A DNA stretch of 36,759 nucleotides from Candidatus Parabeggiatoa sp. HSG14 (GTDB taxonomy: Bacteria; Pseudomonadota; Gammaproteobacteria; Beggiatoales; Beggiatoaceae), in the NCBI RefSeq assembly GCF_030378085.1, contig NZ_JAUCGK010000008.1; one strand, given 5' to 3'. The notes beneath the pieces are model-generated. The model did not search any database. It saw only the letters and a list, made by a program, of their open reading frames with translations, and was not told the DNA's origin. The translations under genes and the position numbers were made by a program. Of this stretch, positions 31,675-34,362 are shown piece by piece (the first letter of the stretch is position 1; each line of letters starts with the position of its first letter).

Positions 31675-34260
31675 TTAATTTCTCTTGTTATCGCTTGCTT
31701 TTGCCATGTTACCGAGTAATCCTTCGGCAGTATCAAACAAATTCACGGGACTATGACCATCAGTAATCAAAACGCTTTGTAAACCAAGTCCTTTCAACAA
31801 ATCAGCTTGCAAAGCAGGGCCTGCTTGTGCAATGGCTTTTAATGTTTCGGTACCAATAGCAGCCATGCGGTTTTTAAACTCTTCTGAGCGAATAGTTGCC
31901 ATACGTTCCGCCTTTTCAATTTCTAAGGTAGTTAAAGCTTTTTGATGTTCAAGTTCAGCAACTTGAGTCGCTTTAAGTTGTTCAAGATCAGTTTGGTTCC
32001 GAACACGAGCCGCTTCGCTGTCTTGTTTTGCAAGGTTGACAGTGGTTTCACCTTTGATACGACTCGCTTCTGCAACTGCTCTGGCTTCTGCTGTGGCTTG
32101 CCCTGTCGTTTCTATAGCCGCATTTTCGGCACGGAGTTCTAACAAATTTTTACGTTCTACCTCTGCTTGGCGAGTATCAACAATCCCTTGGCGTTCTAAA
32201 CGGGCTTTAGCTTCTTGTTCAACCCGTTCAGCGTCATGACGGGCGGCGGCTTCTTGAGCATCAGAAGTAATTTGGATGGCAATTTGTACCGATTTTTGCA
32301 AACTCTTTAAAGTTTCTTCATCCACCGGTTCAACCGATTTAATGTCAACATTAGTAATCACCAAATTATTACTGTCAAAACGGAATTCATTACGAACTCG
32401 CCCTTGTTCATCTGTACCAAATACAGACTCCCTAATAACTTTGGCTGAGTTGCGATGAAACTCATCAAATTTAACCCCTGCCACTTTCCCACGTACTCGT
32501 GATGGAATTGTTTTACAAGTATCACCCACAAAATCAGGCACTTGAAACATACGTGCAACAGTTTCTATATCATTTTTGTCAGGTACATCAAAATGCCAAT
32601 TATAAGCTAATTGCAACTGTAAACGGGCATGATCCGATGTTTCAACAGTAAACATATCAGTCATAAAATCTGGCCCCATGAACAAGGCAAGCGTTCTGAT
32701 GGCATGAGGTTGCTTAGGTTTACCTCCTGATAAACTTAACACAGTAAACGCTTCATCAGGTTCCAACATGACTAAATCCGGTCCAAAGACTACCCGTGCA
32801 GTACGATCTTTGTAATTATGGAGCTGTACCGCTGAGTTTTGTGGTACATGGAAAACTATCGCACGAGTGGGATCGCGTTTGCTTTTTTGCTCAGTTTCAG
32901 CGGTTTTACGCTGTGCAATTGGGCGACGCATTTCTACCATAAAATCAGACTGTTGTTCCAACAATTCTTCTACCAGCGGTGGCAATTCCTTTGTCCACAA
33001 TTCTTCATAAGGTGTTAGCATATAAGCTTTGGGGCCACTCACCAATTTCAATTCACCACTTTTTACATCGCGTACATAAATACCTTCGTTTTTATCCAAA
33101 GGAATGGCTCTGCGCCGTTCTAACACTTGAACTTGTACTGGGGGAATGTAATCGCAAGGGCCTTCTATCATCCATAAATCCCCAGGTTGGCGAGTGATGG
33201 CTTTATCACCACTACTATCAGCAAAGGTTTCTTTGGCTTTGAGTAATAGAGCTTCTTGTTCTCCCAACACATAAACCGCCTGAATACCACCATCTAAAGA
33301 TTCGCCAGGATGCAAGAAAAAGGAAAGGCAACCCTTACGGATTTCACTTTTACCTAATTGCGGTTTTCCTTCATCATCAATGGGATCTTGTACGATACAC
33401 CATTGCCGATCATCTAAGGTTGTAATCATCACTTCTTCGATGACTTCCTCATAAACATCCGGGATATGTGTTTCTACATCGTCAAAAGTAACCAACCACT
33501 CATCACCCGCTTTCCGTTTCTTGCCAAACACATCGACAAAGGTACGAAGCGCGCGTAATTGCAACGCCTTTTTCTCAGTCAATACATAAGCTTCTATTAT
33601 ATTATTAACTTCTTCATCAACCCCAGGCAAATACGCACCTTCTTTACGCACTAACCATTCTTCACCCGCTCGCCGTTTATTGCCTAAACGATCTATGCAG
33701 TCTTGCCGTGCTGACAAACAAAGTGATTCATTGGGTTTAATGATGATAGCTTTAATGGTTTCTAACACTTCAACATCTACGCGAGGAATATAAGTATTTG
33801 GCCCTTCAAACAACCATTCATCTCCCGCTAAATGTTTGATTTCATTATCATCAATTATTTCAATAAAATCACGAAGAGCGCGTAATCGTAAAGCCGTATT
33901 AGTTTCAACCACTTGTAAACGCTGAATTTTTTCAATCAATTCTTCGCCAGGATAGAGAGGGAAAGGCTCCTGAGAAAAACGGATTTCTGTGTCACCATAA
34001 GATAATTTAATTTGCCCAGAAGCATCACAGACAGGTTTCCCTTGTTCATTGCACAGCACAGGGTTAGCAATTGTACAATAGTGGCGCGGTGGAATGACAA
34101 TCATGGCATGAGGTTCAAGTACTAACCTCTCATGATCTTGTAACGTAATCGTTTGAGGTCCCACATCTAAGCGAGTAACCCCCGTATTATTGTCAAGAAC
34201 ATGAATGAATTGTTGTGGTTTTAGGCGAATAACGCTAGGCATTTGTGTATGAGTAGGCAT
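31675..34260 (-). CDS. mvp: Major vault protein (MVP) homologue, full length
   Basis: Long collinear blocks are nearly identical to metazoan MVP as I recall it. 'VIPPRHYCTIANPV' corresponds to 'VTVPPRHYCTVANPV', and 'GDEWLFEGPNTYIPR' to 'GDEWLFEGPGTYIPR'. 'ALRLRALRDF', 'HARLQLQLAYNWHF', 'VPDFVGDTCK' and 'LITDGHSPVNLFDTA' also match. The repeat domains, shoulder and cap-helix all appear to be present. The track ORF begins at a TTG (34293). The first ATG is at 34260, and by homology the start is probably the ATG at 34242 ('MPSVIRLKPQQFIHVLD' matching '[20 protein letters not shown]'). Its stop is 8 bp from the ung stop, convergently. Confidence 0.9.
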   Translation of the reverse strand: MPTHTQMPSVIRLKPQQFIHVLDNNTGVTRLDVGPQTITLQDHERLVLEPHAMIVIPPRHYCTIANPVLCNEQGKPVCDASGQIKLSYGDTEIRFSQEPFPLYPGEELIEKIQRLQVVETNTALRLRALRDFIEIIDDNEIKHLAGDEWLFEGPNTYIPRVDVEVLETIKAIIIKPNESLCLSARQDCIDRLGNKRRAGEEWLVRKEGAYLPGVDEEVNNIIEAYVLTEKKALQLRALRTFVDVFGKKRKAGDEWLVTFDDVETHIPDVYEEVIEEVMITTLDDRQWCIVQDPIDDEGKPQLGKSEIRKGCLSFFLHPGESLDGGIQAVYVLGEQEALLLKAKETFADSSGDKAITRQPGDLWMIEGPCDYIPPVQVQVLERRRAIPLDKNEGIYVRDVKSGELKLVSGPKAYMLTPYEELWTKELPPLVEELLEQQSDFMVEMRRPIAQRKTAETEQKSKRDPTRAIVFHVPQNSAVQLHNYKDRTARVVFGPDLVMLEPDEAFTVLSLSGGKPKQPHAIRTLALFMGPDFMTDMFTVETSDHARLQLQLAYNWHFDVPDKNDIETVARMFQVPDFVGDTCKTIPSRVRGKVAGVKFDEFHRNSAKVIRESVFGTDEQGRVRNEFRFDSNNLVITNVDIKSVEPVDEETLKSLQKSVQIAIQITSDAQEAAARHDAERVEQEAKARLERQGIVDTRQAEVERKNLLELRAENAAIETTGQATAEARAVAEASRIKGETTVNLAKQDSEAARVRNQTDLEQLKATQVAELEHQKALTTLEIEKAERMATIRSEEFKNRMAAIGTETLKAIAQAGPALQADLLKGLGLQSVLITDGHSPVNLFDTAEGLLGNMAKASDNKRN

Positions 34261-34362
34261 AATGGAATATAAAATGTAGAGGAAATGTGTCAAAAGCTAA
34301 AGCTTTGGATGCCAAATAATGCAGTTTTTGGAATAAGTACTGAAGCATAAGTTTTGAAGTAT

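Follow-up and report, generated by a model that had tools for sequence, protein, structure and literature searches.

The 36,759-nucleotide stretch of Candidatus Parabeggiatoa sp. HSG14 DNA analysed here (hereafter the window) carries what is almost certainly a native and intact bacterial gene for major vault protein (MVP), which builds the vault cage of eukaryotes. This gene represents an additional Beggiatoaceae member of an already known bacterial MVP clade, and through it the range known among bacteria reaches further than cyanobacteria and Chloroflexota. The explanation we favour as a whole, a native MVP of a clade of mat bacteria whose product would form an MVP-only, nucleotide-binding cage, is considered reasonably probable. 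The gene, its parts and its flanks are laid out as follows:

30998-31666, plus strand: uracil-DNA glycosylase gene (ung); Pfam UDG, best matches in Beggiatoa, Thioploca and Parabeggiatoa at 84%.
31675-34260, minus strand: MVP gene, 861 aa; Pfam Vault/Vault_2-4/MVP_shoulder, Protein Data Bank (PDB) MVP matches at E 3e-289, same 861-aa protein in public databases (P0001).
31675-31824, minus strand: cap-ring/C-terminal segment with conserved motif LITDGHSPVNLFDTA; MVP alignment up to query residue 863.
31825-32319, minus strand: cap-helix, a long alpha-helix of ~175 residues; helix 648-824 of the AF2 model (861-aa numbering), alignment to the MVP cap region.
32320-32676, minus strand: SPFH-like shoulder with conserved inter-monomer NAD+ pocket residues; Pfam MVP_shoulder, Foldseek SPFH matches.
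32680-34239, minus strand: N-terminal vault repeat domains R1-R9 with the inter-half waist interface; residues ~19-538 of the 872-aa frame, Pfam stretches 64-123, 341-385, 396-448 and 479-538.
34261-34664, no strand assigned: upstream non-coding region of ~400 bp; palindromic repeat of genome-wide occurrence present three times, sigma-70-like promoter match.
34665-35369, minus strand: OmpR-type response regulator gene upstream of MVP; Pfam, not conserved beside MVP in relatives.

The MVP gene lies in a single, continuous and intact open frame of 872 codons, without introns, which runs on the minus strand from a TTG at 34293 to a TAA stop at 31675. One MVP gene was found in the host genome, which comprises 531 contigs (6.6 Mb in total, completeness 87%, GC 0.37) and in which no psbA was found. 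The best matches of ung, the lack of psbA and the Thiomargarita/Thiotrichaceae MAGs among the relatives point to a large sulfur bacterium of the Beggiatoaceae as the probable host. A preliminary description of this DNA had placed the start at 34293. However, this TTG sits within a sigma-70-like -35 box, and the start is probably the ATG at 34260, which yields the same 861-aa protein as is entered for the contig in public databases and an N-terminus in agreement with those of the relatives' MVPs in the alignment. The promoter match, also on the minus strand, has its -35 element at 34293-34288 and a -10 element ending at 34266 (TTGACA...TATATT, 11 of 12 positions matching), in a region where the overall number of sigma-70-like matches is at about chance level. 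Transcription is predicted to start near the ATG at 34260, and the MVP mRNA could be leaderless. The upstream region, earlier described as 370 bp filled with repeats, does contain three copies of a palindromic repeat at ~34399-34545, found in both orientations, one of which forms a terminator-like hairpin. The repeat core, TGGAGTCCAAAGCTTTAGCTTTGG, is present in 197 copies in the genome versus 1.6 expected, spread over 130 contigs and in 91% of cases outside ORFs. It is a REP/BIME-like, genome-wide element and not specific to MVP; it forms hairpins and may have a function in terminating transcription or in mRNA stability. At the other end of the gene, ung and MVP are convergent across a gap of 8 bp (31667-31674), as previously noted.

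All Pfam modules of MVP were found in the frame, i.e. Vault_2, Vault repeats in four stretches, Vault_4, Vault_3 and MVP_shoulder, each far above its gathering threshold; the shoulder domain (PF11978) covers residues 540-658 of the 872-aa frame with an E value of 1.4e-51. A phmmer search against the Protein Data Bank returned MVP chains at E 3e-289 over query residues 19-863, and the solved rabbit, human and rat proteins (E ~1e-289) are aligned end to end, with the cap-helix and cap-ring colinear with the MVP C-terminus up to residue 863. The similarity is thus not local, and the initial reading of a complete minus-strand ORF alignable over its full length holds. An AlphaFold2 (AF2) model, computed with 16 bacterial homologs as input, has low confidence (pLDDT 53) and an MVP-like layout, in which the repeat domains are rich in beta structure, the shoulder is mixed and a helix of ~175 residues is formed. 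Together with the Pfam modules and the alignment, this helix bears out the earlier impression that repeat domains, shoulder and cap-helix are all present. A Foldseek search with the model placed the vault MVPs of rabbit, human and rat at the top (~51% identity) and SPFH proteins next. The MVP shoulder has an SPFH-like fold, and the kinship with the SPFH family (flotillin, HflK/C, stomatin, prohibitin) is confined to the fold of this one domain; the protein as a whole does not show an SPFH/band-7 architecture, and its remainder is MVP. As in the eukaryotic MVPs (human; rat and rabbit vault; PDB 4HL8, 9BW5, 9Z4W), R1-R9, the SPFH-like shoulder, the cap-helix and the cap-ring follow in the same order, with 40-51% identity from end to end, although the window protein is bacterial and roughly 50% divergent. 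The motifs VIPPRHYCTIANPV, GDEWLFEGP.TYIP, HARLQLQLAYNWHF, VPDFVGD.CK and LITDG..PVNLF.TA were all found and are near-identical to MVPs in the PDB. The near-identity to human MVP that had been proposed therefore applies to the most conserved motifs only, as whole-protein identity to eukaryotic MVPs is 40-49%.

The window MVP has 2570 database relatives at E <= 1e-3, and 3713 MVP relatives were found among 50%-identity cluster representatives. Among genome contigs, nearly all matches belong to filamentous cyanobacteria, while some come from Thiomargarita/Thiotrichaceae and from Anaerolineales/Chloroflexaceae and one from an Actinomycetota MAG. Identity is 78-84% to MVPs encoded in Thiotrichaceae/Thiomargarita genomes and metagenomes, ~70% to those of filamentous cyanobacteria, Anaerolineae and the one Actinomycetota genome, and falls to 49% for Anaeramoeba, 47% for a sponge, 43% for a gregarine and 40-42% for ciliates. 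In a maximum-likelihood tree (IQ-TREE, LG+C20; midpoint root for drawing only) the bacterial MVPs group together (100/96), separate from the eukaryotic ones, in a single clade. The window MVP is placed deep inside it, within a subclade of Thiotrichaceae and metagenome sequences (100/100) that is sister to Anaerolineae MVPs (92/84), with the cyanobacterial MVPs as the next clade out (100/98). Compared with the cyanobacterial proteins (Moorea/Lyngbya F4Y3B4, Oscillatoria, Microcoleus), it thus belongs to the same bacterial clade, and filamentous mat-formers are the carriers there too, but its host is gammaproteobacterial (Beggiatoaceae) and it groups with Thiotrichaceae and Anaerolineae MVPs in a sister subclade outside the cyanobacterial sequences.

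The view that only scattered bacterial MVP homologues exist can accordingly not be upheld, given these thousands of relatives, mainly in filamentous cyanobacteria, and published reports from 2013 and 2019. Daly et al. (2013) described cyanobacterial homologs, often annotated as 'colicin uptake protein' (PMC3762200), and Sokolskyi (2019) described MVPs in gliding bacteria, with Oscillatoriales in a eukaryote-like clade and Myxococcales and Cytophagales distant from it (10.1101/872010). The window MVP shares some similarity in repeats and shoulder with the MVP-like proteins of the latter two groups (Daly's ~16-25% group), but identity is only ~21-25% and they represent a separate lineage with band-7-like features according to Sokolskyi (10.1101/872010). 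A distant MVP-like protein of ~22% identity, probably of this Myxococcales/Cytophagales type, is also encoded in one genome of the host's family (G022, locus L009). A report of MVPs in phages dates from 2023 (10.1101/2023.11.10.566534), and our phage search gave only distant megaphage matches at ~27% identity; an Asgard MVP-like structure was reported in 2026 (PMC12962969). The distribution of MVP carriers fits the known pattern of gene sharing both between Beggiatoa and filamentous cyanobacteria, which have many genes in common via horizontal transfer (PMC1951784), and, more broadly, within the filamentous gliding bacteria (PMC6390638). Most likely, MVP spread horizontally among filamentous mat bacteria, i.e. 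cyanobacteria, Chloroflexota and Beggiatoaceae.

MVP is mainly known as a protein of a eukaryotic organelle (PMC3762200), and a chimeric or contaminated contig, in which for instance a protist MVP was joined to bacterial DNA during assembly, was consequently considered. The identities of 40-49% to eukaryotic versus 78-84% to bacterial MVPs, and the nested position deep within the bacterial clade, argue against such an origin. Likewise, orthologs of 78-82% identity are found in the host's family, including Thiotrichaceae S06.Bin195 (G011) and an uncultured Thiomargarita (G013), and the neighbours of MVP differ from those in the window in all three related Thiotrichaceae genomes, so that the gene recurs in differing contexts. 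The codon usage of the MVP gene is genome-typical (78% of the genome's ORFs lie further from the average), its window neighbours are bacterial, and the frame is uninterrupted by introns. In combination, these observations make a eukaryotic contaminant extremely improbable; the earlier assessment of the gene as native to this replicon, with codon usage like that of its surroundings, stands. MVP has most likely been present in the host lineage for long enough to acquire the codon usage of the genome.

The possibility that this native gene is non-functional or decaying was weighed on the same material. MVP is patchy in the host's family (4 of 24 genomes) and lacks a conserved neighbourhood, which would be compatible with decay. 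Still, the frame is intact and of full length, and the mean column identity of 76% across 16 bacterial MVPs from different phyla, together with the invariant interface residues described below, points to purifying selection and not to a pseudogene. Decay is therefore regarded as very unlikely.

The differing neighbours in the three Thiotrichaceae genomes also imply that MVP has no conserved partner gene. At one relative's locus (L010) the gene downstream of MVP encodes a NACHT protein with an FGE-sulfatase-like domain. With regard to the eukaryotic vault partners, no Rfam family, and hence no vault RNA, was matched at gathering score anywhere in the window, the host genome yielded no TEP1-like DUF4062 (NADase), and a search near MVP revealed no PARP partner. 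The previous statement that the window holds no TEP1-, VPARP- or vault-RNA-like partner is thereby corroborated. Vault RNA, TEP1 and PARP4 are accessory features and do not define an MVP. Three proteins with VIT (vault protein inter-alpha-trypsin) domains, which are common in bacteria, are encoded on two other host contigs (C68 and C283) and are not linked to MVP.

Several other genes of the window were recorded alongside. A GluR0-type ligand-gated ion channel (SBP_bac_3, Ion_trans_2 and Lig_chan; 3080-4180, plus strand) adjoins a gene for a pentapeptide-repeat protein that also contains a K+ channel pore (4165-5202, plus). Both types are typical of cyanobacteria, and the pair may represent further cyanobacteria-like genes. 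Restriction-modification genes comprise an Eco57I-like methylase of 1149 aa (5297-8746, plus), a Uma2 putative restriction endonuclease (15427-16158, plus) and an HNH endonuclease (22841-23260, plus). A contractile injection system spike-tip protein (PF19267; 18502-20139, minus) hints at a CIS/T6SS-like locus nearby. Finally, a protein of 1080 aa carries an FGE-sulfatase domain at its C-terminus (23348-26590, plus), and a large LRR protein begins with an LRRNT_2 domain of plant-like type (26979-29747, plus).

The capacity of bacterial MVPs to assemble was approached through the residues that build interfaces in the human vault; what is new here is this residue-level comparison of bacterial MVPs with the 2025 human vault structures. 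In the human particle the two halves are joined by F6, I7, R9, N22, I36, D39, N40 and R42, and the PARP4-MINT domain docks at Q164, R169, Q172 and D214 (PMC12280208). The NAD+ pocket between two adjacent shoulders is formed by R437, R504, K506, R507, P508, H509, R511, L517, D521, F522, W545, P565 and K573 (PMC12280208). These positions were mapped by alignment to rabbit MVP (9z4w), whose numbering stands in for the human one and for which ~15 landmark residues all matched, and conservation was scored across the 16 bacterial MVPs. In P0001, human R9 and D39 correspond to R12 and D42, and human K506 and K573 to K516 and K583. At the waist, R9, N22, D39 and R42 are invariant and the same as in human, while I36 is replaced by L, N40 by H and I7 by V or I. 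In the pocket, K506, D521, F522, W545, P565 and K573 are likewise invariant and human-identical. The other pocket positions vary: R504 is K in 12 of 16, P508 is kept in 13 of 16, H509 is H in nine and N in seven, R507 is R, Q or K, and R511 is I, with R/K512 adjoining. Unlike the four invariant waist residues and most residues of the pocket, the PARP4 (MINT) docking site is not conserved, with D214 mostly G and R169 replaced by K.

Invariant residues alone constitute weak evidence, since bacterial MVPs are highly conserved overall. However, both the waist and the pocket arise only between monomers in the assembled vault, and their conservation suggests that the two-halved barrel and the nucleotide pocket have been retained. 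As judged from the sequence, whether the window MVP forms vault-like cages is evenly balanced, and the conserved interface residues are what would suggest a ~13 MDa vault in the host bacterium. A two-copy complex prediction with MVP residues 1-460 scored 0.00 and speaks neither for nor against assembly. If cages are formed, the 861-aa protein would fold like eukaryotic MVP into repeat domains, shoulder and cap-helix, and monomers would pack side by side into half-cages. Two such halves would then be held together at the waist by the R9/N22/D39/R42 network of the N-terminus, and the result would be a hollow cytoplasmic barrel resembling a vault. Between neighbouring shoulders there would be a conserved basic pocket, the counterpart of the one to which NAD+, ADP or ADP-ribose binds in the human particle. 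Since the PARP4 surface lacks conservation and neither vault RNA nor TEP1 or PARP was found nearby, any bacterial particle would be MVP-only; the eukaryotic vault is a 78-mer particle with such partners. The leading guess for the task of such a cage would be sequestration or storage of nucleotide/NAD+.

Alternatively, bacterial MVP could work without vault barrels, for instance in monomeric form, in small rings or as an SPFH-like scaffold at the membrane, with a role in gliding or in the filament envelope. The shoulder does resemble SPFH proteins such as flotillin and HflK/C, which form membrane-associated rings. Bacterial MVPs were noted in gliding bacteria by Sokolskyi (10.1101/872010), the hosts found here are mostly filamentous gliding mat bacteria, and part of the Dictyostelium vault population is membrane-associated (PMC13100048). 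Conversely, waist residues that are invariant and human-identical would be hard to explain unless two half-cages meet, and the full set of cap-helix and repeat domains has been kept. A role without barrels is hence considered rather unlikely. With regard to the cage reading, its widest form is put forward only tentatively: Beggiatoaceae and other filamentous mat bacteria might assemble MVP-only barrels with an inter-subunit NAD+/ADP-ribose pocket, a nucleotide-binding cage organelle that would be ancient by its conservation and maybe related to the origin of the eukaryotic vault.

Few eukaryotic particles are as large or as puzzling as the vault, and a bacterial MVP could bear on its origin. 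The conserved waist and pocket, set against the unconserved PARP4 site, pose a clear question, namely whether bacterial MVPs alone build NAD+-binding vaults. An affirmative answer would mean that bacteria possess an organelle-like cage and that a relative or ancestor of the vault is found among prokaryotes.
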